Positions 2,564 to 61,244 of a DNA stretch of 64,000 nucleotides are shown here, piece by piece (within the stretch, counting starts at the first letter, position 1; every line of letters begins with the position of its first letter). This stretch comes from an uncultured archaeon (GTDB lineage Archaea; Iainarchaeota; Iainarchaeia; Iainarchaeales; CAZILS01), in contig CAZILS010000004.1 in the NCBI GenBank assembly GCA_964540145.1, positions 605 to 64,604 of the forward strand. Reading direction: 5' to 3'. The notes beneath the pieces were generated by a model. That model was not told where the DNA came from. It worked only from the letters and a program-made list of their open reading frames with translations, and ran no database searches. The translations under genes were made by a program, and so were the position numbers.

Positions 2564-2964
2564 TTTATTTTCACCTTGTATGCTTTTTCTGCTTCTGTTG
2601 AATCCAACAATTTATCCGTCTCTTTTTTATCTTCTATTTTGGCCTTCATTATCCAACTTCCGTAAGGGTCTTTATTGATTTTTGAAGGCTCGTCAAACAA
2701 AGAATCGTTCACTTCTATGATTTCTCCGCTAACCGGGCTTGAAAGGTGACCCGACCATTTCACAGCCTCAAGGGAAACATATGTTTCTCCGGCTTTCAGC
2801 TTTTTTCCTTTCTCCGGCAACTTAATAAACACAAATTCCTTGACTTTTTTTGCCGCAGGCTCTGTAATGCCAACGGTTGCCGTGTCTTCATCAAATTTTA
2901 TCCAAGAATAATCATTGTTGTATTTCAGATTACTCGGTAATTTGTATTCACTCATTTTTTTCAC
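2560..2964 (-). CDS. Glycine-cleavage H-like lipoyl carrier protein (GcvH/LbpA-like)
   Basis: 134 aa with a GcvH fold signature and a probable lipoyl-Lys in SLEAVKWSGHLSSPVSGEIIEVN. No gcvP, gcvT or lpd genes are nearby. Confidence 0.7.
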   Translation of the reverse strand: MKKMSEYKLPSNLKYNNDYSWIKFDEDTATVGITEPAAKKVKEFVFIKLPEKGKKLKAGETYVSLEAVKWSGHLSSPVSGEIIEVNDSLFDEPSKINKDPYGSWIMKAKIEDKKETDKLLDSTEAEKAYKVKIK

Positions 2965-14650: not shown

Positions 14651-14662
14651 CTTTCAGCGCCT

Positions 14663-44587: not shown

Positions 44588-45258
44588 AGCCCCATAACTA
44601 TTGCGGAAATTATCGCGGCCGCAAGTTCAACAAATGGGAAAGCTATTGGAGCTTCAGCTTCCCCTTCGGGAAGAGGCGCTTCCCACGCATCTATTTGTGG
44701 CTGCGTATCCGAGAGTTCCTCGCCTTCCGCAGGCGCATATGTTTTTACCGGTTCTCTTTCCCCTTTTGCGGAAGTGTCCGCATCGGCACCGGTGTCTGCG
44801 CCGGCAACAGTTTCTGGTGCGGTCATAGGCGCAGGATAAATATCATTTCCGTAAACAGCCTGCCCGGAGTTTCCCGCAACTATCGGCATATCGGAAACGC
44901 CAACTCCCGCCATCATAAGGAAAACCGCCCCAACAAAAACAATCGAGGAAAATCCAAGGATAATCATAACATTTGTCTCGGAAGGGAAGACAACATTCCT
45001 TCCCTTTCTTGTGAGTTCCCAGTACTTCCACTTATACCCTTCATCCTTTTGGGAAATAAGTTCCGCGTTCTGCAGCATATCGAGGTGTTCCTTCACTGTG
45101 CTTGGCTTTAGGTTGTGCTGTTTGGAAAGCTCGCTCAATGTCTTTCTTCTTTCCCCCAGGCTCTTGAGGAGGTTAATTCTCGTATCTGCCGCGAGCGCCT
45201 TGAATGACTCCCTGTCAAGAGTTATTTTCTCCTCCACCATAAACACCTTCATGCCCAA
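44548..45258 (-). CDS. ArsR-family HTH regulator fused to transmembrane segments
   Basis: ArsR/SmtB HTH (LAADTRINLLKSLGERRKTLSELSKQHNLKPSTVKEHLDML) plus two TM helices. Confidence 0.65.
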   Translation of the reverse strand: MGMKVFMVEEKITLDRESFKALAADTRINLLKSLGERRKTLSELSKQHNLKPSTVKEHLDMLQNAELISQKDEGYKWKYWELTRKGRNVVFPSETNVMIILGFSSIVFVGAVFLMMAGVGVSDMPIVAGNSGQAVYGNDIYPAPMTAPETVAGADTGADADTSAKGEREPVKTYAPAEGEELSDTQPQIDAWEAPLPEGEAEAPIAFPFVELAAAIISAIVMGLCIGYLAKRRARI

Positions 45259-45638: not shown

Positions 45639-46097
45639 TTATCCCGAGCAATATCCGACCAAAGGTTTGTCCCCGCTTTCAAGGACATGGGTTAGGTCCT
45701 GTGTTGAATAGTTTATATCTATATAGTAGCTGAACACACTCCCGGACCGGCAGGCCTTTCCCATCGTGATATCAAGCCTCTTCTTCTCGCCGGGGGCATA
45801 ATTTGTGTCGTTGATAAGTATGGCATTTCCATCGACAATAAACTCCTCAACAGAGATGTTTCTCACAGTGTTGTTCTGCAGTATGAACTCTGTTTCACTT
45901 TCATTAGGCGTTACTTTCCATTCCACAACCGCAAGGGGGTATGCGCTTTCCCAGTATGCCCTGCTTTCTTTCTCGGTTATGCCTGTCGCAACTCCCGGAA
46001 ACCAGCCCATAACCCCGACCACAATAAGCGCTATGATAATGATTATCGCAAGCAGAACGAGATATTCGGTTGCTCCCTGCCCTTTCAATCTTCCCAT
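45639..46097 (-). CDS. Type IV pilin-like protein (class III signal peptide, KGQ|GATEY, Q+1/E+5)
   Basis: MGRLKGQGATEYLVLLAIIIIIALIVVGV; divergent paralog of the two identical pilins upstream. TATA-like TTTAAATA at about 46128. Confidence 0.75.
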   Translation of the reverse strand: MGRLKGQGATEYLVLLAIIIIIALIVVGVMGWFPGVATGITEKESRAYWESAYPLAVVEWKVTPNESETEFILQNNTVRNISVEEFIVDGNAILINDTNYAPGEKKRLDITMGKACRSGSVFSYYIDINYSTQDLTHVLESGDKPLVGYCSG

Positions 46098-46210
46098 ACT
46101 ATCGGGGAGATATAGGCTTTTCAGGTATTTAAATATACCCTAAAGAAAAAAGAAAAAGGTTTCCCCCCGCGCCCTTGCGGAAGGAGGGGGCAACGAAACT
46201 AAACTTTGCC

Positions 46211-46687
46211 TTATGCGCAGTCGCCGACAAGCGGCTTTGCGCCAATCTGCTTCAGCCCCGATATCTTCTGGGTGTCGTAGTTGATATTGACATCAAGGCT
46301 GTATGGCTGTCCCGCGCTGCATGTGAACCCCGTCAGCGCAACCACTGTCTTGGTCTCGCCTGCGGTGAACTCAAGGTTAGCCGAACCTGTATTGAAGTCC
46401 CCGCTGCTGGTGTTTATGTCCTGCAGGGTTATCTTCTTGCTGGTCATGTTCTGTATCGCGAATTCCGCATCAGTTGCTCCTGTAGAGGTAACCTTCCAGT
46501 CCACAATTGCGAACGGATATGTGCCCTCCCAGTAGGCCCTGCTCTGCGCAGCGGTTATCCCGGTGCCAACGCCCGGCATCCAGCCCATGACCCCGACAAC
46601 AACCAATGCAATAACAATGATAACCGCGAGGATTATCAGGTATTCGGTTGCGCCCTGGCCCTTTGAATTGATTTCCATCTTTAGCAT
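46211..46687 (-). CDS. Type IV pilin (major pilin candidate), copy 1 of identical tandem pair
   Basis: MLKMEINSKGQGATEYLIILAVIIVIALVVVGV; 158 aa; identical to 46831..47307. Confidence 0.8.
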   Translation of the reverse strand: MLKMEINSKGQGATEYLIILAVIIVIALVVVGVMGWMPGVGTGITAAQSRAYWEGTYPFAIVDWKVTSTGATDAEFAIQNMTSKKITLQDINTSSGDFNTGSANLEFTAGETKTVVALTGFTCSAGQPYSLDVNINYDTQKISGLKQIGAKPLVGDCA

Positions 46688-46830
46688 CCCTCCTTTGGTT
46701 ATTTAATCTAAAAAGGGTGTTTAAACTACTATATAAAGCTGTTCTTTGAAAGCTGCTTTAAACCGAAAAAGAAAAAGGTTTCCCCCCCGCTCCCTTGCGG
46801 GAGGAGGAGGCAACGAAACTAAACTTTGCC

Positions 46831-47307
46831 TTATGCGCAGTCGCCGACAAGCGGCTTTGCGCCAATCTGCTTCAGCCCCGATATCTTCTGGGTGTCGTAG
46901 TTGATATTGACATCAAGGCTGTATGGCTGTCCCGCGCTGCATGTGAACCCCGTCAGCGCAACCACTGTCTTGGTCTCGCCTGCGGTGAACTCAAGGTTAG
47001 CCGAACCTGTATTGAAGTCCCCGCTGCTGGTGTTTATGTCCTGCAGGGTTATCTTCTTGCTGGTCATGTTCTGTATCGCGAATTCCGCATCAGTTGCTCC
47101 TGTAGAGGTAACCTTCCAGTCCACAATTGCGAACGGATATGTGCCCTCCCAGTAGGCCCTGCTCTGCGCAGCGGTTATCCCGGTGCCAACGCCCGGCATC
47201 CAGCCCATGACCCCGACAACAACCAATGCAATAACAATGATAACCGCGAGGATTATCAGGTATTCGGTTGCGCCCTGGCCCTTTGAATTGATTTCCATCT
47301 TTAGCAT
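46831..47307 (-). CDS. Type IV pilin (major pilin candidate), copy 2
   Basis: Protein identical to copy 1. Confidence 0.8.
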   Translation of the reverse strand: MLKMEINSKGQGATEYLIILAVIIVIALVVVGVMGWMPGVGTGITAAQSRAYWEGTYPFAIVDWKVTSTGATDAEFAIQNMTSKKITLQDINTSSGDFNTGSANLEFTAGETKTVVALTGFTCSAGQPYSLDVNINYDTQKISGLKQIGAKPLVGDCA

Positions 47308-47396
47308 CCCTCCTTTGGTTATTTAATTGGAGTATTGTTGTTTTTCAAGGTATATAAACCTTGTGCATATGGCATTTCTCAATCCCTTTCTCGGCA

Positions 47397-48467
47397 TTAT
47401 ATCACGAAGAATCCTGAAAGGACAACCCTTGCGATGAAGAACATTATTATGGAGGCTATCGCCATTGCGGGGGTGTATTTCACGCCGAGCAACGGCTTTC
47501 CCGTGTTTAGCACCCCCATAAACATGCTCGCAAGTATCGCATTCCCCATGAGCAGGGCATAGGCGATGACATAAACATCCTCCGAGGTTATGGAGAGCTC
47601 GCTTCCCAGAAACCCCACAGAAGTTCCGGCAGTGCCACCCACAACAGGGTTTTGCGCCTGTATCTCCGAAATCATATCAAGGAACTGTATGGAAATCGAG
47701 AGCAACATCGGCGCCCCAATAACGACGACAAACGCGACAAACATCACATACATCCTTGTGCTCGAGTACAGCTCCTCTTTCATCTCCTGGGTTTGCCTCA
47801 AATCAAAGGCAGTTGTTTCGAGAAGCTTGGAAAGTTTCCCCCCTGAACGCATAGCCTGCGAGAAGAACCATATGGTCTCTTTCAGCACCCGTGAGTTCAG
47901 CCTGTTCGACAGTTCCTTAAGCGCCTGGCTGAATGACTGCGTTCCCAATGATTTCGAGGTCGCGATTTTTATCTCTTCGCTAAGGGGGCCGAACTCCTTC
48001 CTTGCGGCGTTCCTGAATGCCGAGAAAGGGGTCATTCCCGCATTGATGTGGCTCGCAACCAAAAGGAGAAAATCCGGGAGTATCTCCTCGACAAACCGTG
48101 TCCTGCCCTCAATCATGTAGTAGAGGTGTAGATAAACCGCACCAAGCACAATTGCCATGAAAACAGGGGCCATCACAACCGAGAACAAGGCGGGCATAAC
48201 AAGGGGCTGCAGGGAGACTATGCCGAGGGGGTCCAGCGAGATTATGTCAGCCAGCCCGAAAGGAAGCAGCCCAAAATATTTCGGCAGCGTCCAGGGAATA
48301 AGGAATCCTATAACCCCGAAAAGCAGGGCAAGCAGCATCTTTTTCCCTACCCAAAAATCATAGTCCTCGGAAATCCCCCCGAAGCGGAGCTGCCTGTAAA
48401 TAAAATCCTTTCTCCCCCCCTCCGCAAGGGCCTTCTCCGCTATGCTCTTGCTTATTCTTTCGTACAT
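47397..48467 (-). CDS. FlaJ/TadC-like pilus assembly membrane protein (T2SS-F domain)
   Basis: 356-aa polytopic protein with a T2SSF-type cytoplasmic domain. Confidence 0.7.
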   Translation of the reverse strand: MYERISKSIAEKALAEGGRKDFIYRQLRFGGISEDYDFWVGKKMLLALLFGVIGFLIPWTLPKYFGLLPFGLADIISLDPLGIVSLQPLVMPALFSVVMAPVFMAIVLGAVYLHLYYMIEGRTRFVEEILPDFLLLVASHINAGMTPFSAFRNAARKEFGPLSEEIKIATSKSLGTQSFSQALKELSNRLNSRVLKETIWFFSQAMRSGGKLSKLLETTAFDLRQTQEMKEELYSSTRMYVMFVAFVVVIGAPMLLSISIQFLDMISEIQAQNPVVGGTAGTSVGFLGSELSITSEDVYVIAYALLMGNAILASMFMGVLNTGKPLLGVKYTPAMAIASIIMFFIARVVLSGFFVI

Positions 48468-49354
48468 CAGAACATCACCATCGGAATCCTGTTTTTAATG
48501 AAGCCTATAAGCACAACCTGTATCGCGAATGCCGCAAACACGACAAACCATAGCTGGAGAGGGTCTATGCTTGCGCCGCCTATCGCGGAAAGTATAATCA
48601 TGAAGGTTATCCCTATTGTGGGCACAGCCGCGGCAAGGAGAAGGTAAATGAGTATCCAGAGGTTAAGCTCCGCGGCATAGTTCTTGATTGCCCTTAGCTG
48701 GTAGTTTGTGAGGCTCGTGACAGATGCGTTGAGCGCCCCAACCAGAGAGGCCCCGCTCCTCAACGAGGTTATCAACTGCCAGGTTATTTTCTTGAGGTGC
48801 TCGGACCTTGTCCTTATCGCAAGCTTTTCCATTGCCTTCGTTTCGGACTCGCCCGCGGAAACCTCCTTGACAACCTCCTCGAACTCCTCGGACATCTTCC
48901 CGTACTTTGCCTTCGCAACATTCGAGAGCGCATCGAAAAGGCTTATCCCGGAGGTTATCTGTATCAGTATGCTCTTCAGCGCAAACAGCAGGCTCTTGTC
49001 AATCTTTTCGGCAATCTGCTTTGCCATTACCCCTGGGTAAATCACGTGCAGCATAAAGAACATCAGGCCCCCGAGAACGCCCCCGAGCGCGGCGGATGCG
49101 TAATGCGAGTTTTCAATAGCCCCCGCCCTCGCAAAGAGCAGCGCAAACACAAACCCGAAGAAAAGCAAGCCGTAAACAACCGCGGAAAATACAGATGCGG
49201 TAAGATACCTCGGCGCATCGATATCAAGCTCGGCTTTCTGCAGGTCGTACTTCGTGGAAAAGAGAAGCCTCGAAAGCCTTTCCCCAATCCAGAGAAAGCG
49301 CCTGTTTATCCTATTTGCCTTTTCAATGGAAAACAGCATGAACCGTACTCTCAC
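48467..49354 (-). CDS. TadB/FlaJ-like pilus assembly membrane protein (second T2SS-F domain protein)
   Basis: 295 aa with a T2SSF-like pattern; stop/start shared with the downstream gene. Confidence 0.65.
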   Translation of the reverse strand: MRVRFMLFSIEKANRINRRFLWIGERLSRLLFSTKYDLQKAELDIDAPRYLTASVFSAVVYGLLFFGFVFALLFARAGAIENSHYASAALGGVLGGLMFFMLHVIYPGVMAKQIAEKIDKSLLFALKSILIQITSGISLFDALSNVAKAKYGKMSEEFEEVVKEVSAGESETKAMEKLAIRTRSEHLKKITWQLITSLRSGASLVGALNASVTSLTNYQLRAIKNYAAELNLWILIYLLLAAAVPTIGITFMIILSAIGGASIDPLQLWFVVFAAFAIQVVLIGFIKNRIPMVMF

Positions 49355-49357
49355 CAG

Positions 49358-51229
49358 CTACAACTCCACGACCTTCTCATAAGGCAGGTCCTTCTTTGCC
49401 GCATTCTTGATGGCATCAGGCCTTGCATAAAACTCCTTCATAACCATGCCGACCTGGTCCATATCGTTGATGTTCTTTCTAAGCATCCACTGCAGTATCT
49501 TTGCCCTGTCCGCAAGCTCCGCATCTATCTCCTTCTCGGTCATTCCCGTAACAATGTTTATCTGCCTCACGAACTTGCTTGCCGGATTCAGGGTTTCCCA
49601 GCTATCGCTTCTAGGGTCCCAGCGGTATATGGTATTTACATTAAGCTGCTCGTTGCTTATCCCTGCCTCAATCTCTGCCATCTCATAGGTTCTCCTTATG
49701 TTGAGCCTTCTGTCCCTGAACTGGACAAGGAGCAAATCGACAGCCTCGACCTCCAAAGGCGGAATCTCTATCGGGGGCTCGGTAAGCCTTCTCAGCACCT
49801 GCTCCGCAGAGTTTGCGTGGATTGTCGAGTAGACGCTATGCCCGGTATGCATCGCCTCAAACAGCACCTCGGCCTCCCTTTTTCTCCTCATCTCCCCCAA
49901 AATTATCCTGTCGGGCCTCATCCTCAAGGCAGTCTGCATAAGGTCAAGCATTGTCACTTCCCCCAAACCTTCAGGGTTGGGGTTTTTAGTGGTGGTAGGC
50001 ACCCAGTTCCATCTCATATATTGCGGCAGCATAATTTCCCTGACATCCTCTATCGAGATTATCCTGTGGTATGAAGGAATAAATGCGCTGAGCGCATTAA
50101 GCGTTGAGGTTTTTCCGCTTGCTGTTCCCCCCGCAACAATGACATTAAGCTCGTACTGTATCGCAATCCACAGCATCGCGGCCATTTCAACACTCATCGA
50201 GTGGCTCTTGCCTATGAAATCAACAACTGTCCAGGGTCTCCTCGCAAACCGCCTTATTGTAAGCGTGTTTCCCAAAGATGAAACAGGGGAGAGTGTTGCG
50301 TTTACCCTGTCCCCACTTATCAAGTGCGCATCCAAAATCGGCGAGAGCGCGGTAATTTCCCTCCCCACTTTCCTCCCTATCTGCGAGGAATAATTCGCTA
50401 TCGCTTCCTCGCTTTCCATGCCCAGATTTGACTTCATCCACCCAAATTTCTTGTGGTAAACCGTTATTGGGGAAGAAGCAGAGTTTATCGCAACCTCCTC
50501 CAGGCCATTGTCCCCCATGAGCAGTTCAAGGTCCCCCAGGCCATACATTTCATGCAGGAGCCTCCCCGAAAGCAGATTGAGCATTGAGGGGTCCATTTCT
50601 GCGAGATATGCCTTCAGCTCCGCCTTCGCAACATCAAAGAATCTCTTTTTGAGTTCAATGCTTCTCTTAACATCGGTAATTTCGGAAACCTCTATGGGGA
50701 TTTTCTCCGCAATTTCGTCCCTCATCGAATCCAGGAAAAGCCAGGTATAGGGCCCTATGAAAGGGACCTGCACCTCGTACATAGGCCTGTGTTCAGTTGC
50801 AGCATCAACAACCCTGATTTTCACGGGGACATAATCAACGATAAATTCGTACTCGTCCAGGGGGTTCCCCCCGATTTTCGGGGGGAATTCCTTGTGGAAC
50901 TCTTTGATAAACTTTATGCTTGGCTTTCTCGCAATCATTGCGGGATATGCGACATCAACAAGCCCCTGCTTCTCGAAAACCAGGCCGACTTTTTCGACGG
51001 AATTCTGGCTCCAGTTAAGCTCCTTGGCAAGCCCGGAAATCGAAATTTCCTTTTTCTCCCTAAGGAGGTCCATCATCCTGTCTATGTTCGTTGCTTTCAG
51101 GGAAACTTTCGCACCTTTAATCTCGCTTGCCTTCTTCCCCTTTTCGGGGACTATGTCGTCAAGTGCAATTCCCTTCTTTTTTCCTGCTTCTGTTTTCTTT
51201 TCGCCCTTGGCCATATCGCACCGCTCCAT
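49358..51229 (-). CDS. Type II/IV secretion system ATPase (FlaI/TadA/VirB11 family), pilus assembly ATPase
   Basis: Walker A GGTASGKTSTLNAL plus Asp and His boxes; 623 aa with an N-terminal extension. Confidence 0.9.
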   Translation of the reverse strand: MERCDMAKGEKKTEAGKKKGIALDDIVPEKGKKASEIKGAKVSLKATNIDRMMDLLREKKEISISGLAKELNWSQNSVEKVGLVFEKQGLVDVAYPAMIARKPSIKFIKEFHKEFPPKIGGNPLDEYEFIVDYVPVKIRVVDAATEHRPMYEVQVPFIGPYTWLFLDSMRDEIAEKIPIEVSEITDVKRSIELKKRFFDVAKAELKAYLAEMDPSMLNLLSGRLLHEMYGLGDLELLMGDNGLEEVAINSASSPITVYHKKFGWMKSNLGMESEEAIANYSSQIGRKVGREITALSPILDAHLISGDRVNATLSPVSSLGNTLTIRRFARRPWTVVDFIGKSHSMSVEMAAMLWIAIQYELNVIVAGGTASGKTSTLNALSAFIPSYHRIISIEDVREIMLPQYMRWNWVPTTTKNPNPEGLGEVTMLDLMQTALRMRPDRIILGEMRRKREAEVLFEAMHTGHSVYSTIHANSAEQVLRRLTEPPIEIPPLEVEAVDLLLVQFRDRRLNIRRTYEMAEIEAGISNEQLNVNTIYRWDPRSDSWETLNPASKFVRQINIVTGMTEKEIDAELADRAKILQWMLRKNINDMDQVGMVMKEFYARPDAIKNAAKKDLPYEKVVEL

Positions 51230-51291
51230 CTCTGCCTTTGCTTACTTAATATTTCTTTACATTAATAAAGTTATTCGCATCTGCGAATTTC

Positions 51292-52152
51292 CTATCCCCT
51301 GCACAATTCCGGTTTCCTCCCCACATTTACGTCGTTTCCAAGAACATTGAGGTCTGCATTGTAGTAGCACACCAAATCCCCGCTTTCCGCGGGGAGGAGC
51401 GCTTTTATTGTTATAGCCGCAACAGTGTCCTCATCTGCCAATGATTCCCTTATCAGTATTGAGCGCCCATCGGCCCCTATCTGCCCCACATGTATTGCCA
51501 CATAGTTGCTCCCGTCTCCCGAGAAATTGAGGTCGTATCGGTTGAGCAGCGAGGAATCCAGCTTTCCGGACTGCGTTACGGAATTGCCGTCGTTATCCCT
51601 GAAATCTATGTTCACATTTATGTCCCCGCCGGAATCCCATGCCCATGCGCCGGTCGAGAAGAATGTATCGTTCACCGAAACGTTTATGTCGTAAGCAAGG
51701 ACCCCGCTGCCGTCGCCATGGTCGCCGAACTGCACATAGTTGACTATGCCGTAATTATAGTCGTACTGCAGGCCGTTGTTGAACTTCAGTTCGGTTAATC
51801 CGTCTGTCAGCTGAAGCAAATCAAGGATTACCGTTGTGTTTTGTTTCTCATCGTACTCTGTCTCGATAAAAGTCTCAAAACCGGAGAGTTTTTCCTTGGC
51901 TATTCCGGAGGGCAGCGAGTCGGTGATTTCGATGGTTGTGTAGCTTGAGCCCCTGTTCACATCTACCTCTGTGCCGAGCAAATCGTTCAGCGTATCCTCG
52001 ACATCCTCCACAATAGCCCCCGCCTTTATGACGGCATAGCTCCTTTTCAGGTCGATTTCCCTGTCGTGTACATTGCCTGCATAGAACGCCGAGTAAAGCA
52101 GGAGCGCCGAAAACAGGAACAGTGCGGATATCGCAAAGACAAAGCCCCTCAT
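51292..52152 (-). CDS. Pilus-associated secreted protein with N-terminal hydrophobic anchor (minor pilin-like)
   Basis: MRGFVFAISALFLFSALLLYS, then a D/N/G-rich beta-type domain. Confidence 0.5.
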   Translation of the reverse strand: MRGFVFAISALFLFSALLLYSAFYAGNVHDREIDLKRSYAVIKAGAIVEDVEDTLNDLLGTEVDVNRGSSYTTIEITDSLPSGIAKEKLSGFETFIETEYDEKQNTTVILDLLQLTDGLTELKFNNGLQYDYNYGIVNYVQFGDHGDGSGVLAYDINVSVNDTFFSTGAWAWDSGGDINVNIDFRDNDGNSVTQSGKLDSSLLNRYDLNFSGDGSNYVAIHVGQIGADGRSILIRESLADEDTVAAITIKALLPAESGDLVCYYNADLNVLGNDVNVGRKPELCRG

Positions 52153-52156
52153 GGTT

Positions 52157-52579
52157 TCACTTCCTGTGCCATACGTTCATCTCCGCCACACATATGTTTG
52201 CGTCGTCGTTATTCACTATGAAAACCCTCTTCGAGCTTGTGTACTCTGTGAAGTCCTTCCTGCACAGGGGTCTCCTCACGACAAAGTCGGCGTTGTTCAG
52301 GTCCTCGGTAGGATAGACCTTCACTTCCGCACAGTATGCCTGCGGAAGCTGGTTGAGGTACTTCCTTATCCTGTTCACCCTGTCGTTCTGCACTGCGTAC
52401 TCCAGCTCGCCGCTCTTCTCGAGGACGGCAATCGCGTCATCTCCGAACTCCCTCAGCTGCAGCTGCCTGTGGCCTTCGAATTTTATTCCGGCAATGTATG
52501 CGGTTGCGGTAAGCAGCATGAAGAATATTATAAATGCGGCAATTAGGGCATCGAAACTGAAGATTATCCCGCGTTTCAT
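52157..52579 (-). CDS. Minor pilin-like protein (class III signal peptide)
   Basis: MKRGIIFSFDALIAAFIIFFMLL. Confidence 0.55.
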   Translation of the reverse strand: MKRGIIFSFDALIAAFIIFFMLLTATAYIAGIKFEGHRQLQLREFGDDAIAVLEKSGELEYAVQNDRVNRIRKYLNQLPQAYCAEVKVYPTEDLNNADFVVRRPLCRKDFTEYTSSKRVFIVNNDDANICVAEMNVWHRK

Positions 52580-53082
52580 TCGCTCACCCCCACCCTCACC
52601 ACAACGCTGCTGCCGTTGTAGTACGCAGGTCTTGCGACAGTAACGACCGTTGCGTTCCCGTCCCCGTCGGTGCCGAACTTCGCAGCCTGCTGCCCCCCCT
52701 GAAGGTAATTTATCGTGATTCCCACATTGTATCTCCCCGCCCCGAAAAGCCCCTTTGCGTCGGAATAGCTTGAATTCAGGTCCACGAGCCTCGCCAGCTT
52801 GTCCCCGTCGATAACCGACCTTTCCTGTACAAGCCCTATCGAGTTGATGTCGTCGATGCTCGCCAGGTATTCCCAGTTGGCCGGGGACCCTTTACTGTAG
52901 AGCAGCTGGTTGCTTGCCCTAAGTGCCGCTTCTTTCATATCATAGTCCTTCTCTGCATTGTTGAGGCTGTTCTGGAGCGCAGTCGCATAGACTATGCTCA
53001 CCGTGACAAGCCCGACAAATACCGTGAAGGCGACGACCGCATCGGTGCTGAACATTTGCCCCTTACTATTCAACGCCCTCAA
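52576..53082 (-). CDS. Minor pilin-like protein (SKGQ|MFSTDAVVAF)
   Basis: Class III signal with Q+1. Confidence 0.6.
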   Translation of the reverse strand: MRALNSKGQMFSTDAVVAFTVFVGLVTVSIVYATALQNSLNNAEKDYDMKEAALRASNQLLYSKGSPANWEYLASIDDINSIGLVQERSVIDGDKLARLVDLNSSYSDAKGLFGAGRYNVGITINYLQGGQQAAKFGTDGDGNATVVTVARPAYYNGSSVVVRVGVSE

Positions 53083-55042
53083 CCCTTACTTTTTCCCCTA
53101 AATTGGTGGCCTTGAAAATCCTCGGGTTTTCGAGGAGTTCCCATATGCACCCCCCCTGTAACTGGCACTCCGCCTGGAGTATGAGCCCTATGCAGCTTGT
53201 GCAGCTCCCCTGGCAGTCGGGCGGTGTCCATGAACAACCGTCCTGCCCCCCGCAACTCCCCTCGGTGCCGAAGGTCCCGCATCCTGTACAGCCCCCGTAA
53301 CAGTCCGCCAAGTCCCAAGAACATCCGTCCTGCCCCTCGCACGTGCCCTGTGCACCATATGTATCGCATGCGGTACAGCCCCCGTAACAGTCCGCCAAGT
53401 CCCAAGAACATCCGTCCTGCCCCTCGCACGTGCCTTGGCTACCGTAGCTTGTGCATCCTGTGCATGTGCCGTTGCAGTCCTCATCCCAGCCACACCCGTC
53501 CTGCCCCTCGCACGTGCCTTGGCTTCCGTAGGTGCTGCAGGCAGTGGGCGAGCCTGCACACTCATCAGGGTTCCACAGGCACCCGTCCTGCCCCTCACAC
53601 GTGCCCTGTGCACCATATGTATCGCATGCGGTACAGCCCCCGTAACAGTCCGCCAAGTCCCAAGAACATCCGTCCTGCCCCTCACACGTGCCCTGTGCAC
53701 CATATGTATCGCATGCGGTACAGCCCCCGTAACAGTCCGCCAAGTCCCAAGAACATCCGTCCTGCCCCTCGCACGTGCCCTGTGCACCATATGTATCACA
53801 GCCTGTTTCCGTGCCGTAGCAGTTCTCGGGATCCCAGGTGCATCCCGAGTCCTCGCATTCCCCCTGCCCCCCGTCATGTGCCGAGCAGGCGTGCGGTTCC
53901 CCCGAACACCACCATATAATGAACCATGTTGCTGTACAGCCGTGCGCTTCGCATGTTGCCTGGTCGCCTATATATGTTGTGCAGGGGTCATGCGTGCCCT
54001 CGCAGTTCGCAAGGTCCCAAGAACACTCGTCCTGCCCCTCGCAGTTCCCCTGTGCACCATATGTATCACAGGTTGTTGCCGTGCCCTCGCAGTTCGCAAG
54101 GTCCCAAGAACACTCGTCCTGCCCCTCGCACGTGCCTTGCGCACCATATGTATCGCATGCGGTACAGCTCCCATAGCAGTCCTCCTCATCCCATGCACAC
54201 CCCCCCTGCCCCTCGCAGTTCCCCTGCGCACCGTAAGTCGTGCAGTCCGTGCATGCTCCTGCGCAGTCCTCCTCATCCCATGCACACCCCCCCTGCCCCT
54301 CGCAGTTAGGCTGGCTTGCGTAGTTGTTGCAGTCGTTACAGCTCCCATAGCAGTCCTCCTCATCCCATGCACACCCCCCCTGCCCCTCGCAGTTCCCCTG
54401 CGCACCGTAAGTCGTGCAGTCCGTGCATGCTCCTGCGCAGTCCTCCTCATCCCATGCACACCCCCCCTGCCCCTCGCAGTTAGGCTGGCTTGCGTAGTTG
54501 TTGCAGTCGTTACAGCTCCCATAGCAGTCCTCCTCATCCCATGCACACCCCCCCTGCCCCTCGCACGTGCCCTGCGCACCGTAGGCATCACAGGCGGTAC
54601 AGCTACCTGCGCACCCGCCTCCTCCCCATAAACATCCCGACTGGGCATTGCAGTCGATTTCCGTGCCGAATGAGCCGCATTCTGTGCAGCTCCCTTGGCA
54701 GGTCGTGCTGTCGATGAGCTCGGCGTTCTTTGTCAGCAACGGCATGTCAAGGAAATTGCCCCTCCATGAAACTTCGACAGTATTGTCGGCTATATCGACG
54801 TTATAGTCCTCGCCGAGCCTCCCGACATTTATGGTTGCCTCCGCCCCCGTCCCTCCCAGCCAGACATTGTTTATCCCCCTTGCAACCTCTGACGCGATTT
54901 CCTTCGCCTCCAGGACCTCTCTCGCATAGATATAACCTTCCGTCCTCTCCCCGTATGTGAAGACCGCGAACGACAGCACTATGAAAAGCGCCACCACCAC
55001 AACAATGAACTCCATGCTCGCCTGCCCTTTTTTCCCACCCAT
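53066..55042 (-). CDS. Pilin-like protein with about 17 tandem cysteine-rich repeats (consensus roughly C-T-A-C-D-T-Y-G-A-Q-G-T-C-E-G-Q-D-G-C-S-W-D-L-A-D-C-Y-G-G)
   Basis: Class III signal peptide MGGKKGQ|ASMEFIVVVVALF, then a roughly 550-aa repeat array with 5 Cys per roughly 29 aa (about 90 Cys in total). The underlying DNA is near-identical 87/174-bp repeats, and that DNA repetition is why both strands throw up many ORFs here. Confidence 0.8.
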   Translation of the reverse strand: MGGKKGQASMEFIVVVVALFIVLSFAVFTYGERTEGYIYAREVLEAKEIASEVARGINNVWLGGTGAEATINVGRLGEDYNVDIADNTVEVSWRGNFLDMPLLTKNAELIDSTTCQGSCTECGSFGTEIDCNAQSGCLWGGGGCAGSCTACDAYGAQGTCEGQGGCAWDEEDCYGSCNDCNNYASQPNCEGQGGCAWDEEDCAGACTDCTTYGAQGNCEGQGGCAWDEEDCYGSCNDCNNYASQPNCEGQGGCAWDEEDCAGACTDCTTYGAQGNCEGQGGCAWDEEDCYGSCTACDTYGAQGTCEGQDECSWDLANCEGTATTCDTYGAQGNCEGQDECSWDLANCEGTHDPCTTYIGDQATCEAHGCTATWFIIWWCSGEPHACSAHDGGQGECEDSGCTWDPENCYGTETGCDTYGAQGTCEGQDGCSWDLADCYGGCTACDTYGAQGTCEGQDGCSWDLADCYGGCTACDTYGAQGTCEGQDGCLWNPDECAGSPTACSTYGSQGTCEGQDGCGWDEDCNGTCTGCTSYGSQGTCEGQDGCSWDLADCYGGCTACDTYGAQGTCEGQDGCSWDLADCYGGCTGCGTFGTEGSCGGQDGCSWTPPDCQGSCTSCIGLILQAECQLQGGCIWELLENPRIFKATNLGEKVRVEGVE

Positions 55043-55051
55043 AAAAAACCA

Positions 55052-57469
55052 CTATGATATTACGAGGTCGATATTGTCGAACTCCGCTTCTAACCACTCG
55101 TTGTTCCCCCAATCATAGACCTTCGCCCCAAGCTCGAGGTAGTATGCTCCTGTCCCGGTTATCAGCGAGCTTACATCTATATCCTCCGAGGAGCCTTGTT
55201 CATTGGGGTTATTGTCCCAGAATATTTCATCGGTCGCATCAGCATGGCTGTCACTCCCATCTAAATCACTTCCTAAATAGGTCATCCCCGATGAGTTCCC
55301 GAATCTCGCCTTTATCCAGACTTCGTCGTTGTTGTCGAGGCGGTAATCTTCCAAATACCAGTCGAAGGTGAGGCTTGCGCTTCCCCCGTTCTGGAGGAAC
55401 AGCCAGTGGTCGGAGTTTATATCGAACTGGATACCATACGCCCCCGAGTTGTCGCTCCCCGTGTTGTTGCAGCTGTTGTCGTAGTCGCCTATGTGCACAA
55501 TTATCTTGTTTTCGCTCCCGACAGTCGAGTCCGCCGACGAATCGTCCTCGTTCGGGTCCGCGTTGAACATCACGCACTCGCTGTTCGAGGAATAGGGGGC
55601 ATAGCCCCAGTCCCAGCCGTCATACTCTGCGCCCGCCCCGAATGTATTGGCACTCGAGTTTATGTCTGTGCCGAAGTCAAGCGGCTGGGGCCTGTCGGAG
55701 GTGTGTTCGGACAGGTCGACCGTGAAGGGGCCAATCACAATGATGTTTATCTGCCTGTTCTCGTCGCTCGTTCCCTCATTGCTGTTGCCGCTGTCATCCG
55801 TGCAGTTGACATCCCAGCCGTACGTTCCCGACGTGAAGTCGTCCTTGAAGAAGTACTGTGTCACCCCCTCGGCTATACTGTTGTTTGTGTCGTCGGTCGC
55901 CCCGTTTATAACAAGCTCGCAGTTGGCTATCCCCGAGCTCCTGTCGTAGACGTTGAAGTCGAACCGGACGCCGGCGAGGTAAGAGGTGGCTCCCGGTGCG
56001 GGGGAGAGCAGGGTTATAATGGGTGCGTTTGTGTCTTCCGTATAGAAAGTCCCTGTGGTATAAACCGAGTTGTCGTCGAACTCGAACTCTATCCTGAAAT
56101 ATTCCCCATCGTCCTGTGCGTCCGCCGTGAACCTGAGCCTGTTGTCGTTGAAGCTGTCCCCTGCGGTAATCGTGAAGTCGCTGATGTCCATCCACTGCCC
56201 TGCAGAAACCCCTCCCGAGTCCCACACAAGCGTGCTGTTCAGGAAAATCCTGTCAACCTGCGCGCCGTCGTTGTCGCTGATGTTGTAGTCCAAAATCCTC
56301 ATCCTGTTTAGGGTTATGCTGTTGCCGTCATTCAGGTTCTCGACATACCAGTAGTCCAGCCTTTGGCTGTCGGAGAAATAGGCGTCGAACCAGCTGAAGT
56401 CGAAGGCGCCGGCCGCCTGTTCGACGGTTATGAACAGCGCTATCGTGTCGGTGTTAGAGGAGTCGTCCGTGGCTGTAATGGTTCCTGTGTTCATCCCTGT
56501 AGATGCCCCCCCGGGAACCGTGAGGTTTGCGTCTATAATCTCGCAGGTGTTTGCGGAAAGTGCGGGGATTGCGGGGATTGGCGAGACCCAGTCCCCGGCA
56601 TCTCCCGCCGACATAGTGAACTGCACGTTCGTGAGGTCTGTGTCCGTGGTGTTGCAGACGTTGAAGCTTTGCGACGAGCCTCCCCCCGAGAAAACGCTCG
56701 CGGTCCAGGAGGCCGGGAATATTATCAGGGGATCTGCCTCCGCCGACACGACCTCGATGTTTATCGGCACATAGAGATTCACGTCCTCGCCGCCATAGGA
56801 CGCATTTACCGTTATATAGCCTGCATAATTTCCCGCGGAGGTCGAGTTCGAGGAGAAGGATAGCGAAAGGTTGTAGTCCTCCCCGTCGTTTACCGTGAAG
56901 CTGTCCGCGCTTAACTGCATGTTCACGTCGGTGTGCGCCCAGTTCTCCCCGATGTCCACTGTTGCCGTGCCTCCCGTGCCGTTCGTTACCGTGATGTAGT
57001 CGGTTTCCGAGTCGCTCTGCGCAAGGGTGAGGTAAATCGAGGTCTTGTCGATGTCCAGCGTCCCTTCTCCGATAGCAACATAGCCTTCGTATGCACTGAA
57101 CCAGACCCAGTGCCTTCCCGGGGAGAGGTTGAGGGTCCCGCTTAACGGTGCGTTTGTTTCCGCGATTATGTCCGAGCCCATGACGTTGAACCTTATCGTT
57201 TGGTTCTCCGTGCCGCTCAAGGACTCGTCTATGGTGTCGGGAACGTCGTAGTAAACATAGCGTTTCGCGCCCTCCCCCTGCCTGTAAACATCGTCGACAG
57301 CCTCCGCAAGGCTCTTCACGGAATTCTCGGCATCTTCGAGGATTTTCCGCTTGTTCATGTCGACAACAGTCTGTGTGCCCAGAGAATATACGGAAAGTAT
57401 GATGGCTAGGGAAACAGACAGTATAATCAGGAACTCGACCGCGCCTTGGCCCCGCTTGCAGGAGAACAT
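55052..57469 (-). CDS. Large pilin-like adhesin (805 aa) with class III signal peptide
   Basis: MFSCKRGQ|GAVEFLIILSV, then a D/N/S/T/G-rich beta-type ectodomain. The antisense ORFs are rejected. Confidence 0.75.
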   Translation of the reverse strand: MFSCKRGQGAVEFLIILSVSLAIILSVYSLGTQTVVDMNKRKILEDAENSVKSLAEAVDDVYRQGEGAKRYVYYDVPDTIDESLSGTENQTIRFNVMGSDIIAETNAPLSGTLNLSPGRHWVWFSAYEGYVAIGEGTLDIDKTSIYLTLAQSDSETDYITVTNGTGGTATVDIGENWAHTDVNMQLSADSFTVNDGEDYNLSLSFSSNSTSAGNYAGYITVNASYGGEDVNLYVPINIEVVSAEADPLIIFPASWTASVFSGGGSSQSFNVCNTTDTDLTNVQFTMSAGDAGDWVSPIPAIPALSANTCEIIDANLTVPGGASTGMNTGTITATDDSSNTDTIALFITVEQAAGAFDFSWFDAYFSDSQRLDYWYVENLNDGNSITLNRMRILDYNISDNDGAQVDRIFLNSTLVWDSGGVSAGQWMDISDFTITAGDSFNDNRLRFTADAQDDGEYFRIEFEFDDNSVYTTGTFYTEDTNAPIITLLSPAPGATSYLAGVRFDFNVYDRSSGIANCELVINGATDDTNNSIAEGVTQYFFKDDFTSGTYGWDVNCTDDSGNSNEGTSDENRQINIIVIGPFTVDLSEHTSDRPQPLDFGTDINSSANTFGAGAEYDGWDWGYAPYSSNSECVMFNADPNEDDSSADSTVGSENKIIVHIGDYDNSCNNTGSDNSGAYGIQFDINSDHWLFLQNGGSASLTFDWYLEDYRLDNNDEVWIKARFGNSSGMTYLGSDLDGSDSHADATDEIFWDNNPNEQGSSEDIDVSSLITGTGAYYLELGAKVYDWGNNEWLEAEFDNIDLVIS

Positions 57470-57501: not shown

Positions 57502-58284
57502 TTAACCTTTAATTCCGTAGAGCCTTCTCGCAACCTCTTCGGCAACATCCTTTGAATAGCCTTTATCCACAACTTCTTTTTTCACGTCCGCCTTGGTGTA
57601 GTCTGCCTTGTGCTGTTCAAGCGAGGCAACTATCGCCTCAACATCTTTCTTGTCGTCTTCGGCAAGGGCTGATGCCGGAGCCGCCGCCGGGTTCTCCCTG
57701 TTTTTGGCTATGGCTTTTTCTTCCCATTCGGCAGCGGCTTTTTTCAGCCCCTTGACAGTGCCGACCTGCCCGGTCTGGAATTCCGCCTGTTTCTTCTCTT
57801 CAGGATACTCTTGGGTTAATTTAATTTTATTTGCCTCTGTTGGCGTGGCTTCAGCCACAGGTTTTTCCATCTGCTCCTCTTTTGCCAGCGATTTCATTGC
57901 CGCCTTTATCTTTGGCTCCGGCGCCGCGGGTTCGGGGGAAATTGTTTCCGCCTCTGCAGCCGCCTTCTGGGCAGCCTTTTCTCCCTTGGCTTTTTTCTCC
58001 GCGGTCTCTCCGCCTTTCCCCTTCTTCCCCCTTGAGGCTTTTTCAAACTCAATCCCGATAAGGTCTGCGCCCGACATGTAAGGCTCGATTACCCTCCTGG
58101 TAACTGCCCTTAGCACAAGTATAATCGCAACGATGATAAACATGGAGCTTGCCCCGCCTATGGCGGCAACCGCCTCCAAAGGCAGCCACAAACCGCATTC
58201 CTTGATGCCAACGCAGGCGAGAACTGCGTTTAGGCCGATTGCAATCAGCAAACACGCCACAATTATGTATTTATGGAAAGCCAT
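57502..58284 (-). CDS. Membrane protein with K/A/E-rich low-complexity C-terminal region (hypothetical)
   Basis: Two TM helices then an AEKKAKGEKAAQKAAAE-type region; 260 aa. Confidence 0.45.
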   Translation of the reverse strand: MAFHKYIIVACLLIAIGLNAVLACVGIKECGLWLPLEAVAAIGGASSMFIIVAIILVLRAVTRRVIEPYMSGADLIGIEFEKASRGKKGKGGETAEKKAKGEKAAQKAAAEAETISPEPAAPEPKIKAAMKSLAKEEQMEKPVAEATPTEANKIKLTQEYPEEKKQAEFQTGQVGTVKGLKKAAAEWEEKAIAKNRENPAAAPASALAEDDKKDVEAIVASLEQHKADYTKADVKKEVVDKGYSKDVAEEVARRLYGIKG

Positions 58285-58320
58285 TTTGAAATAATGAGGA
58301 AAGGCTATATAAAAACCTTT

Positions 58321-58579: not shown

Positions 58580-58948
58580 CTATCGCCGGTCCCTGTTGCT
58601 TTCCACTCCCGATTTTTTTGCGATTATCTTGGCCTCATCCCTGAACCCAAAGTCCTTCCCTATTTTCTTCACAATCATCGATGCCCTCAGCATGAAAAGG
58701 AAAAACAGGAAAACCAAAACAATCCCCGGAATTTCCTTCAATGAGGGATCTTCTATCGCGACAAGCCCGGATTCGAGCAGGAAGTTCCAAACCGCATAGG
58801 GAAAGCCGCACAGCATAACTGTCATCAAAAGCCAGACCATCAGCTGTTTCGTTGTTCCTTTGCTGAGTTCCCTGTATCCCTGGTATATCAGGATTCCCGC
58901 GGCAAGCCCGATAACCGCCACAAGCAGTGTTCCCAAAACGTTAATCAA
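58580..58948 (-). CDS. 3-TM membrane protein (hypothetical); start uncertain (TTG at 58948 overlapping the upstream stop as TTGA, or ATG at about 58838)
   Basis: The long ORF (to 59086) overlaps the upstream gene and has a non-protein-like N-terminus, so it is trimmed. Confidence 0.3.
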   Translation of the reverse strand: MINVLGTLLVAVIGLAAGILIYQGYRELSKGTTKQLMVWLLMTVMLCGFPYAVWNFLLESGLVAIEDPSLKEIPGIVLVFLFFLFMLRASMIVKKIGKDFGFRDEAKIIAKKSGVESNRDRR

Positions 58949-59532
58949 GATTTCACCTCCTTTGGCGCAGTCAGGTCTATAACAGTATCGATAAATTGCC
59001 TCAGCAGGGCAACCATGCCCTTGTCCTTCTCCGCGCTTATCGCAAGCACAACCCCAATCACGCCCCAGCTTTCCATCCTCCCGCATAAAAACCTCGCAAA
59101 CTTGTTGACTGTATTGGGCTCGTGGAAAACCGAGAGCGAGGAAAACGAATCGAAAATGAGGAATCTTTTTCCCCGGGAAATCGCGGACATTGCGTTTTCT
59201 ATCGCGATGCCGAGGTCGGTAAGGTTCTGCGGGGTGTCTATGTAAAGGCAGCCCTTTACCTTGCCCGCCCCCTCCTTATCCCTCTCGGAGGAGATTGCAT
59301 CGATGAAAATCACCCTCTCGGTGTCAACGCCCTTTGCATCCAGCAAGTACTTTAGTTTGCGGTAAGGCTTGTTAAGCGTGACGTAAATGCCTGCCAAACC
59401 CCTATTCTTCACGAGGTACTCTGTTATTTCCATGTTTGTTTCAGTAAGCCTGCTTGGGCTCTCAATAACAAGCGCAATCTTGTTTTTGTCCTTGAATGCG
59501 TTCTCAAGTTTTTTTAGAATTATTTCGTCCAT
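58945..59532 (-). CDS. KaiC/RecA-fold domain protein lacking Walker A (DUF835-like), paralog 1
   Basis: YVTLNKPYRKL...VIFIDAIS...FLIFDSFSSL...FIDTVIDLT is homologous to 62139..62690. Confidence 0.55.
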   Translation of the reverse strand: MDEIILKKLENAFKDKNKIALVIESPSRLTETNMEITEYLVKNRGLAGIYVTLNKPYRKLKYLLDAKGVDTERVIFIDAISSERDKEGAGKVKGCLYIDTPQNLTDLGIAIENAMSAISRGKRFLIFDSFSSLSVFHEPNTVNKFARFLCGRMESWGVIGVVLAISAEKDKGMVALLRQFIDTVIDLTAPKEVKS

Positions 59533-59573: not shown

Positions 59574-61244
59574 TTAAAACACCTCGACTTCCGGATAGAC
59601 CGCCATTCCGTCCTTCTCAAACCCGATTGCGAGGAGCTTGTTTGTGTGTTTTGTCCCCCTCATCTTCAGGATTTCGCAGCTGTGCACCCTGACCGCACTG
59701 TCGCTTTTCTTAGAGTAATAAAGCGAGATTACCGCATCCGTAAGGAAGCCGATGCTTCCCTCCTTGATTTCCGCAACCTTCGGGGGCAGCTCCGAGATAA
59801 GCAAGGAAGTTACGCCCCATGACTTTAACATGTCGATGAGCCTTATGATGCTCTCCCTCCTCTGGTATTCCTCCCGGAAAAGGAGGCTGTAAGCAGTGAC
59901 AGAGTCCATGGCGAGCCTTGTTGCCCCCATCTCCCTTATCGCATCCTTGATAGGTCCCCCGCCCTGGGTTACCAATTTCTCGGCCTGGTGCGGCCTGTAC
60001 TCAAGAATCCTGAAAAGGTTTTTTTTCTCCAGCGCCTCGAAATCCCATCCGAATGCGGAGGAATGCCTTATCAGGGAAGCCCTGTCCTCCTCAAAACTGA
60101 TGAATATCCCGGGCTCGTTGTCCCGCAGCGCGCCATAGTAAAGATACTGCAGGCAGAACAAGGTTTTTCCGGAGCCTGCAGACCCGACAACCAAAACCGC
60201 AGAGCCCCTTTCAAAACCCCCCTCTATAAGTTTGTCAAGCCCCTTAACCCCTGATTTAATTCTTTCAATCGTCAACGCAGGTTTCTTCGCCTTTGCCTTT
60301 ACAACAGGCGTTCCCTTAAGGTTTGGCCTCTTTCCCCCCCGGGTATCGGGGCTCTCGAGAAGCTCCTTAAGCGCGGTCCTGACCTTGCTATGGCCTCCGT
60401 CGGTTTTTATCGCCGCGGTTTCCCCCTCTTTCAGGGAACGTGCAACCCCTGAAACATCCATCGACCTTTTGCCCTCGTCTTTCAGGCTGTTTTTTATGTC
60501 TTCCATTGCGGAGGCGATTTTGCCCGCGAAGGAGGAAGGCGCCTCCCCGGCCACAACCGCCGGTTTTGGGGCGGGCATTTTCCCGCCATGCCCTGCTGCC
60601 GAAGTATCCTTTGGCTCTGCGGTGCCTGCCCTCTGCCCGGGAAGATGCAGGGGAACCGCCCCTCCTTTTAAGGAGGGTGCCGCCAGACCGAAGGGAGGTG
60701 CCCCAGCCGAGCCGGCAGGCGAAGGTGCCGAAGGAATTTCAATTTCCTTCTTCGCTTTGGGGGGAACGGAAATCTTTCTTTTAACAATTGGAACTTTTTT
60801 TTCTGTTTTCCTCTTGGCGGGAACCGAAGGCTTTCTTTTTAGGGAAAGGGCCGAACCCTTCCCTTTCGGTTTCTTCGCACGAGGCGGCTTCGCCGTCGCA
60901 ATCTTTGTGGGAATGGCAACCCTGCCCTTTGCAACAACCTTAACCCCTGCATATTTTCCCGCGGAAGGCACCCTTATCTCAACTTTTGGTTTTTCTCCGA
61001 GGCCCCCAAAATCCTTTTTCCCGTTTTCCCTGAGTTTTCCCAAAACCCTTCCGGGAATTGCCGCGCCCCTCGCCTTTCCGGCTGCGCCGCCTATTGCGGG
61101 CTTTTTCGAAACATTAATCTTGACGGTTGATTTTCCCCTTGCACCATCCCGTTTTTTTTTCACCACAGATTTCCCATTCTTTTTTTCTTTGGGAGTAAGC
61201 AGTCTCCCAATAACCCTTCCCGGAACAGCGCTAAGTCCTGCCAA
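59574..61244 (-). CDS. KaiC-like RecA-superfamily ATPase with roughly 300-aa Lys/Pro/Ala-rich N-terminal extension
   Basis: C-terminal domain has Walker A GSAGSGKTLFCLQY and a KaiC-like core (ISFEE, LLISELP). The N-terminal half is low-complexity basic (K-rich) sequence. Confidence 0.7.
   Translation of the reverse strand: MAGLSAVPGRVIGRLLTPKEKKNGKSVVKKKRDGARGKSTVKINVSKKPAIGGAAGKARGAAIPGRVLGKLRENGKKDFGGLGEKPKVEIRVPSAGKYAGVKVVAKGRVAIPTKIATAKPPRAKKPKGKGSALSLKRKPSVPAKRKTEKKVPIVKRKISVPPKAKKEIEIPSAPSPAGSAGAPPFGLAAPSLKGGAVPLHLPGQRAGTAEPKDTSAAGHGGKMPAPKPAVVAGEAPSSFAGKIASAMEDIKNSLKDEGKRSMDVSGVARSLKEGETAAIKTDGGHSKVRTALKELLESPDTRGGKRPNLKGTPVVKAKAKKPALTIERIKSGVKGLDKLIEGGFERGSAVLVVGSAGSGKTLFCLQYLYYGALRDNEPGIFISFEEDRASLIRHSSAFGWDFEALEKKNLFRILEYRPHQAEKLVTQGGGPIKDAIREMGATRLAMDSVTAYSLLFREEYQRRESIIRLIDMLKSWGVTSLLISELPPKVAEIKEGSIGFLTDAVISLYYSKKSDSAVRVHSCEILKMRGTKHTNKLLAIGFEKDGMAVYPEVEVF

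Follow-up and report, generated by a model that had tools for sequence, protein, structure and literature searches.

A predicted type IV pilus locus, distinct from the archaellum, in a DPANN archaeon related to Iainarchaeota

The 64-kb window analysed here, a stretch of contig CAZILS010000004.1 from an uncultured archaeon, carries at 45639-57469 on its minus strand genes for an assembly ATPase, two platform proteins with a single T2SSF domain each, three pilins and five pilin-like proteins. They are transcribed in the order 805, 658, 168, 140 and 286 amino acids (aa; the five pilin-like proteins, hereafter the cassette), ATPase, two T2SSF platform genes and three pilin genes. A first-pass annotation of this DNA had described a complete, co-directional pilus locus of Epd/EppA type with seven pilin-like genes. 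All genes indeed lie on one strand at the coordinates in Table 1, but eight pilin-like genes can be counted (three of the major type plus five in the cassette), and "complete" overstates the case: the essential prepilin peptidase is missing and a syntenic KaiC-like module upstream had been left out. Gene content and protein models make it very probable that this is a non-archaellum archaeal type IV pilus (T4P) locus of a DPANN archaeon, which by its sequences is related to Iainarchaeota/Diapherotrites.

The core machinery comprises a VirB11/FlaI/PilB-family secretion ATPase of the hexameric type and a polytopic T2SSF platform, and the Pfam matches of all three proteins (Table 1) bear out their earlier assignment. 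The ATPase sequence shows the Walker A (GGTASGKT), Walker B and His-box motifs. Among NCBIfam models, FlaI matched it best (286.6 bits, cut-off 550), while TadA reached 163.3 (cut-off 373); among solved structures, Archaeoglobus fulgidus GspE (afGspE, 2OAP) scored 245.9 bits, Sulfolobus acidocaldarius FlaI 177 and CpaF 143.4. By sequence, the ATPase is closer to FlaI and A. fulgidus GspE than to CpaF/TadA, and it is collinear with this GspE over residues 128-606. With 623 aa versus 511-513 aa for afGspE and FlaI, it carries an N-terminal extension (residues ~47-123; 50861-51091, minus strand) with faint helix-turn-helix-like matches (DUF3489, Lrs14). The extension is common to orthologues from Iainarchaeota and Micrarchaeota, while matches from Woesearchaeota and Aenigmarchaeota start near residue 124. 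The platform proteins share 25% identity (E = 4e-12) and are thus paralogues of each other; platform protein 1 aligns with the UpsF profile in its N-terminal half, and its gene overlaps the next one by 1 nucleotide (nt).

The major pilin belongs to a family of 2813 representatives (50% identity) at E ≤ 1e-3, whose listed members are mostly ~150 aa long and whose named homologues come from "Candidatus Diapherotrites" and Micrarchaeota. In an alignment of 36 family members, Gln+1, Glu+5, Tyr+6 and Leu+7 are invariant, as is one Asn that usually lies within an N-x-S/T sequon, and QxxxEY is present in all 93 homologues in which the Gly-Gln motif was located. In 109 of 114 full-length homologues there are exactly two Cys, spaced by 34-38 residues and with the latter beside the C-terminus, and both are missing together in three; such a covarying C-terminal pair is the pattern expected of a disulfide. 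Structure prediction of the major pilin, proposed in the first-pass annotation as a check, was in keeping with a pilin: the AlphaFold2 model (predicted local distance difference test, pLDDT, 85.6) has an N-terminal helix and a beta-sandwich at residues ~59-156 of the 158-aa protein, which has 148 aa in its mature form. Foldseek against the PDB ranks the Aap filament of S. acidocaldarius first (8q30, 1.8e-4), ahead of T4P pilins of Pyrobaculum and Saccharolobus and archaellins, and the sequence profile also matches 8q30 (6.8e-4). The protein thus combines the three features expected of a T4P filament subunit, namely a class III signal, a hydrophobic helix at the N-terminus and a globular domain. 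Two of the three pilin genes are the product of a 620-nt tandem duplication that runs from the ribosome-binding region to the terminator, and the differing flanks of this duplication argue against an assembly artefact. Elsewhere, a metagenomic protein of 3213 aa has 26 matches to the globular domain of the family, and the pilin beta-sandwich therefore seems to be reused as a tandem surface repeat.

A six-frame scan of the whole window located an N-terminal [KR]GQxxx[ED] motif followed by a strongly hydrophobic stretch in five genes of the locus only; the lone other match to the motif has no hydrophobic segment. This confinement argues against a chance pattern. The Gln+1/Glu+5 signal is therefore carried by five of the eight pilin-like genes, and all five cassette genes encode an N-terminal [KR]G followed by a hydrophobic helix. 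The first-pass annotation had set the cleavage site after the Gln (KGQ/), which is misplaced, since Gln+1/Glu+5 requires G/Q. The only pilin-type Pfam match in the locus is PF04021, the DUF361 motif of EppA substrates.

Stop/start coupling had been claimed for the entire block. It holds from 57469 down to 47397, the only tightly coupled part, where gaps range from -17 to +62 nt, and fails for the pilin genes, with spacings of 89-143 nt before and among them. Each pilin gene is preceded at 36-51 nt by a TTTAWATA box; 15 such boxes were observed in the window versus 4.1 expected, five of them in the locus and on the correct strand. Both identical pilin copies are followed, 26 nt past the stop codon, by the start of a GC-rich hairpin with a T-run. 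The assembly operon probably begins with the gene of a 260-aa membrane protein, 32 nt upstream of the 805-aa gene, because the box at 58306 is the nearest TATA-like box upstream of the assembly block. Further upstream lie two KaiC-like genes. In the shorter one, a DUF7504 protein, no Walker A motif was seen when the sequence was read by eye. In the longer one, residues 1-320 (60287-61244) form a lysine-, alanine- and proline-rich, low-complexity region ahead of the single KaiC domain.

Table 1. Features of the predicted pilus locus in order of transcription; a slash in a motif marks the predicted cleavage site (TM, transmembrane).
Feature	Position	Strand	Matches and remarks
KaiC-family ATPase, 556 aa, single-domain, Walker A GSAGSGKT	59574..61244	-	KaiC 1.6e-52
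KaiC-like protein, 195 aa, DUF7504	58945..59532	-	orthologues in 9 loci
TATA-like box ahead of 260-aa membrane protein gene	58306-58313		
Membrane protein, 260 aa, 2 TM segments then K/A/E-rich stretch	57502..58284	-	lineage-specific
Large pilin-like protein, 805 aa, MFSCKRG/QGAVEF	55052..57469	-	DUF7289 0.002, Big_13, Big_7
Minor pilin, 658 aa, MGGKKG/QASMEF, cysteine-rich repeat insertion	53066..55042	-	
Minor pilin-like protein, 168 aa, TTG start, MRALNSKG/QMFSTD	52576..53082	-	
Minor pilin-like protein, 140 aa, MKRG/IIFSFDAL, two conserved Cys	52157..52579	-	weak DUF7288
Pilin-like protein, 286 aa, MRG/FVFAISALF	51292..52152	-	
Assembly ATPase, 623 aa	49358..51229	-	T2SSE 2.5e-34
Platform protein 1, 295 aa, one T2SSF domain	48467..49354	-	T2SSF 4.7e-14
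Platform protein 2, 356 aa, one T2SSF domain, TadB/TadC-like half platform	47397..48467	-	T2SSF 4.5e-16
TATA-like box of major pilin copy 1	47351-47358		
Major pilin copy 1, 158 aa, ...SKGQGATEY, G/QGATEY signal	46831..47307	-	
Hairpin and T-run after major pilin copy 1	46805-46782		
TATA-like box of major pilin copy 2	46730-46737		
Major pilin copy 2, 158 aa	46211..46687	-	protein identical to copy 1
Terminator-like hairpin and T-run after major pilin copy 2	46185-46162		
TATA-like box of 152-aa pilin paralogue	46126-46133		
Pilin paralogue, 152 aa, MGRLKGQGATEY, MGRLKG/QGATEY	45639..46097	-	Class_IIIsignal 4.1e-4; 46% identity to major pilin

The conservation of the locus was assessed by tblastn of the window proteins against 80 related DPANN loci. 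In 73-75 of them, two platform genes come after that of the ATPase (platform protein 2 in 73, platform protein 1 in 75). A pilin of the family occurs in 36; of the cassette, the 168-aa protein is represented in 37 loci, that of 805 aa in 30 and that of 286 aa, conserved directly upstream of the ATPase, in 22. The KaiC-family ATPase was found in 24, mostly just upstream of the 805-aa orthologue or the minor-pilin block, and the 260-aa membrane protein had zero matches in these loci. Since the order KaiC-like ATPase, five minor pilins, ATPase, two platform genes and pilin recurs in contigs of Iainarchaeota and Micrarchaeota, the locus probably extends as a wider conserved unit up to ~61244, past the start first reported. 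For the assembly ATPase, sequence identity is 61-64% with proteins from archaeon GW2011_AR10 and from metagenome-assembled genomes of Candidatus Iainarchaeum, and 43-57% with orthologues from Micrarchaeota, Altiarchaeota, Woesearchaeota and Aenigmarchaeota.

Within the cassette, the 168-aa and 140-aa families are distant homologues (hhalign 88.8%, E = 2.5e-6). Two archaeal Pfam families, DUF7287 and DUF7288, are matched by some of their orthologues, DUF7287 by those of the 168-aa protein. The Gln of SKG/QMFSTD is invariant in orthologues of the 168-aa protein, and a profile search with this family gave only 14 DPANN-like matches and no named euryarchaeal proteins. In the public gene call this minor pilin has 159 aa, as it starts at an ATG just past KGQ and loses the signal peptide; a TTG start nine codons upstream restores the KGQ. 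The 805-aa protein, with weak matches to DUF7289 and to immunoglobulin (Ig)-like and carbohydrate-binding module (CBM)-like domains, is a candidate tip adhesin by analogy. As we found no literature on DUF7287, DUF7288 and DUF7289, these matches are only a lead. A PHROGs scan of the large proteins returned no useful match.

The 658-aa protein consists of a pilin core of ~130 aa and an insert of ~525 aa before the last beta-strand. Its orthologues in other DPANN genomes measure 124-154 aa, and the cysteine-repeat insertion is, by sequence comparison, lineage-specific. In the insert, a 29-aa unit (CxGxCxxCxxYGxQGxCEGQxGCxWDxxx) is repeated ~17 times, which brings the number of Cys to 85. Little or no variation is seen at Cys 1, 8, 17 and 23 and at Trp 25 of the aligned repeats, those of other proteins included, while the Cys at position 5 appears, among the aligned repeats, only in this protein. 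Copies of a higher-order unit of 174 nt (54163-54583) are 98% identical, which points either to a recent expansion or to a possible short-read assembly error. The exact 658-aa product is absent from the protein collection; those of neighbouring genes are present. The cysteine-rich repeat as such (22-31 aa, C..C..[YF].....C.....C.W; 53129-54613, minus strand) has no Pfam family and is also found in other large surface proteins. Its best match, a protein of 597 aa encoded on a contig with a full sigma-70, has a pilin N-terminus of the bacterial N_methyl type (PF07963; G/FTLVELL), and a second match likewise begins as a bacterial-type pilin. We favour a disulfide-stabilised stalk as the putative function of the array. 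The window further encodes two thioredoxin/glutaredoxin-like membrane proteins with 7-8 predicted TM segments (2948-4621 and 7117-8379, both minus strand), which could be involved in extracytoplasmic disulfide handling, relevant to the 85-Cys protein and the Cys pair of the pilin.

Several observations weigh against the assignment as a T4P locus or against parts of it. The strict FlaFind regular expression, a type of check that the first-pass annotation had suggested, matches the 658-aa protein at its predicted cleavage site and misses the other seven pilin-like genes, and the Class_IIIsignal hidden Markov model scores the pilins at E = 4e-4 and 20.6 bits, just under the Pfam cut-off of 23.7. 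Most of the pilin-like genes thus fail simple signal prediction, yet profile, fold and synteny mark them as pilins. PDB profile searches with the three small cassette proteins gave no significant match, and an AlphaFold model of a four-repeat fragment, made with the repeat alignment, reached a pLDDT of 41 and was unusable. The roles suggested below for the cassette, the KaiC-family ATPase and the cysteine repeats are drawn solely from position and analogy. Prepilin processing, too, has to be assumed, because a peptidase was found neither in the window nor near the 80 related loci. Its absence from the window, already stated in the first-pass annotation, is borne out by a Pfam scan of every open reading frame (ORF) outside the locus with at least four predicted TM segments, which gave no Peptidase_A24, and by a negative GxGD[..]K motif scan; around the 80 loci, a GxGD scan of ~1250 ORFs and Pfam searches of 10 multi-TM neighbours were negative as well. 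A T4P locus without its own peptidase gene is normal, and membership is not excluded by it. In a survey of 15 DPANN genomes, EppA (arCOG02300) was present in three and FlaK-type peptidases in nine (PMC5498576).

How the locus relates to known T4P subsystems is less clear-cut. We consider it unlikely that it encodes a strict Epd pilus (Makarova clade 1 / System 1), which would be an orthologue of the EppA-dependent pilus of Methanococcus maripaludis and be processed by a dedicated nine-TM EppA. The likeness is considerable: the class III signals end in Gly, and the Gln+1/Glu+5 motif of the five proteins named above is linked to EppA processing (PMC3875500); PF04021 is the sole pilin-type match; the platform is encoded by two single-domain genes; and about five minor pilin-like genes including a large putative adhesin, as well as a non-motile function, are common to both. 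Moreover, System 1 loci have been reported in DPANN (bioRxiv 10.64898/2026.04.22.720090) and a Methanococci-type system exists in Micrarchaeon Mia14 (PMC5498576), whose single peptidase is FlaK-like (PMC5498576). However, the major Epd pilin (arCOG06620) has ~70 aa and no globular domain (PMC4858521, PMC6668835, bioRxiv 10.64898/2026.04.22.720090), whereas the mature pilin of our locus is about twice as long and has one. Proxy scores point to a FlaI/GspE-like rather than a CpaF-like ATPase, and its N-terminal extension is a System 2 trait (bioRxiv 10.64898/2026.04.22.720090). While Epd loci contain EppA, an associated FleN/MinD ATPase and DUF2341 (PilY-like) adhesins, EppA was not found in the window, FleN/MinD and DUF2341 were unmatched among the locus proteins scanned, and a KaiC-family ATPase is present instead. 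Tyr+6, invariant here, is absent from M. maripaludis pilins (PMC3875500). The split platform does not discriminate, because two platform (tadC) genes are likewise found in a large number of clade 2 loci and in some 4A/4B loci. The "Epd/EppA-type" label is thus only partly supported: it fits the signal motif and the two platform genes but not the globular pilin nor, going by these scores, the ATPase.

Features of other systems are mixed in as well. The collinear ATPase with its N-terminal extension recalls System 2 (Haloferax PilB3/PilB4, A. fulgidus GspE), as do the pilin-like cassette beside the ATPase, which resembles the "euryarchaeal-type" locus of Mia14, the weak matches of the minor pilins to archaeal DUF7287, DUF7288 and DUF7289, and the KaiC-family ATPases often linked to such loci (PMC4858521). 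On the other hand, System 2 has a single platform gene (bioRxiv 10.64898/2026.04.22.720090) where ours is split, Haloferax pilins have no Glu+5 (PMC3875500), and the DPANN-wide major pilin family is not PilA (arCOG02416). With the bacterial Tad/Flp (type IVc) pili, the locus shares G/xxxxEY, with Gln+1 also found in Gram-positive Flp pilins (PMC3875500), an ATPase gene followed by two half-size platform genes (tadA-tadB-tadC) and no separate retraction ATPase. In contrast, the pilin is three times the length of Flp and has a globular domain, the TadA score lies far under its cut-off, and there were no Flp_Fap, TadZ, secretin or pseudopilin TadE/F matches among the locus proteins. The S. acidocaldarius Aap pilus offers the best solved match, with an N-terminal helix and an Ig-like beta-sandwich, but shares only 16% identity and differs by its AapA/B/E/F/X gene set, its single platform gene and the lack of Gln+1/Glu+5. 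The two ATPases of Mia14 were annotated as "CpaF family" in the Methanococci-type locus and "archaellum/pili biosynthesis" in the euryarchaeal-type one (PMC5498576 Suppl. Table 2), and among the 15 DPANN genomes surveyed arCOG01818 occurs in 14 and arCOG01819 (clade 1, CpaF-like) in eight (PMC5498576). Our locus resembles the widespread arCOG01818-type system more, yet with a split platform and DUF361-type signals, and is filed here as an archaeal T4P of DPANN without assignment to a subsystem.

A device mainly for DNA uptake (competence), or a short pseudopilus-type apparatus for secretion or uptake in place of an adhesive fibre, seems rather improbable. Natural transformation of M. maripaludis requires T4P genes (PMC10133366), DPANN genomes are reduced and their bearers may scavenge nucleic acids, and DNA exchange via T4P has been proposed for Mia14. 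However, the locus genes scanned include no ComEC-like or Ced-like DNA-binding or translocation genes, the three promoter-equipped pilin genes suggest an abundant filament subunit, and the large pilin-like proteins with Ig/CBM-like domains or repeats look adhesin-like. That the locus encodes a reduced archaellum, i.e. a swimming organelle, is barely conceivable: although FlaI is the best NCBIfam model of the ATPase, archaellins are among the weaker Foldseek matches of the pilin and there is a KaiC-family ATPase close by, the FlaI score falls far under its cut-off, the KaiC-family ATPase reaches 28.9 against an ArlH cut-off of 215, ten locus proteins gave no archaellin or ArlF/G (FlaF/G)-family Pfam match to E = 0.1, the platform is split in two genes and most DPANN reportedly lack archaellum genes (PMC5498576). 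The first-pass view of a type IV pilus, with its core domains present and no archaellum genes found in the window, is thereby upheld.

Beyond the locus, the pilin genes are followed downstream by the gene of an ArsR-type winged-helix protein with predicted membrane segments and an acidic linker (44548-45258, minus strand), matched in one of the 80 related loci, and then by an ABC transporter pair (41725-44587, minus strand). An ORF at 13175-14650, one possible N-terminus of which mimics a class III signal (...DKG/FGLIGNILF), was tried as a further pilin and rejected on account of its ~8 predicted TM segments. This 491-aa protein has no family match and adjoins a DUF87 HerA/FtsK-like ATPase (14663-15958, minus strand); the two (13175-15958) may form a separate membrane-associated ATPase system.

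For the predicted pilus, the following assembly route can be proposed. Prepilins would insert into the membrane and be cleaved after the Gly, exposing Gln+1, by an A24 aspartic peptidase encoded elsewhere. The T2SSF heterodimer, equivalent to one FlaJ/PilC, would dock the ATPase, which would lift mature pilins out of the membrane and stack their N-terminal helices into a filament. The beta-sandwich domains would then form its outer surface, probably N-glycosylated and closed by the C-terminal disulfide. By comparison with bacterial minor pilins and PilY1, and with the models in PMC4858521, the five-gene cassette might provide a complex that primes the filament or forms its tip; the 805-aa protein would then serve as adhesin, and the cysteine-repeat protein might be an extended stalk or a surface module. 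The KaiC-family ATPase might regulate or partner the motor, in the way that ArlH serves ArlI. The pilus most likely attaches the cell to a host or to a surface, with DNA or nutrient uptake as a secondary possibility.

DPANN T4P islands with unrecognisable pilins were noted in 2019 (PMC6393860) and DPANN loci with two platform genes were described in 2026 (bioRxiv 10.64898/2026.04.22.720090). Because comparable DPANN loci are already catalogued, the present one is a fresh example of a known machine type and not a new kind of machine. What we did not find described are the invariant Flp-like G/QxxxEY, the covarying C-terminal Cys pair, the order of KaiC gene and five-gene cassette, and the insertion of cysteine repeats that also occur in bacterial-type pilins. 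One might go further and see a distinct DPANN-wide T4P lineage that combines an archaeal FlaI/GspE-type motor with "bacterial" pilin traits, namely Glu+5, the Flp-type Tyr+6, a predicted D-region-like C-terminal disulfide loop and the tadA-tadB-tadC order. If so, the lineage could be closer to the bacterial Tad ancestor than Methanococcus Epd is. Alternatively, pilin modules might have been exchanged between ultrasmall archaea and bacteria, a variant suggested by the occurrence of the same cysteine-rich repeat in a DPANN minor pilin and in bacterial N_methyl-type pilins. Such a lineage, in either variant, is doubtful and in our view a long way from probable, given that the ATPase is not TadA-like.

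Most DPANN archaea are uncultured, their genomes are very small and a life in attachment to other cells is assumed for them, with pili as the leading candidates for making this contact. To our knowledge, no DPANN pilus has been characterised. Published surveys have proposed a role at the host interface for DPANN T4P (PMC6393860, PMC5498576, bioRxiv 10.64898/2026.04.22.720090). The locus presented here provides a syntenic DPANN pilus gene set made up of a KaiC-like ATPase, a five-gene cassette, a motor, a split platform and a highly conserved pilin of ~150 aa. Its hallmarks, namely G/QxxxEY, the conserved sequon and the Cys pair, could guide annotation, antibody and cryo-electron microscopy work and the placement of these pili relative to Epd and Tad systems.

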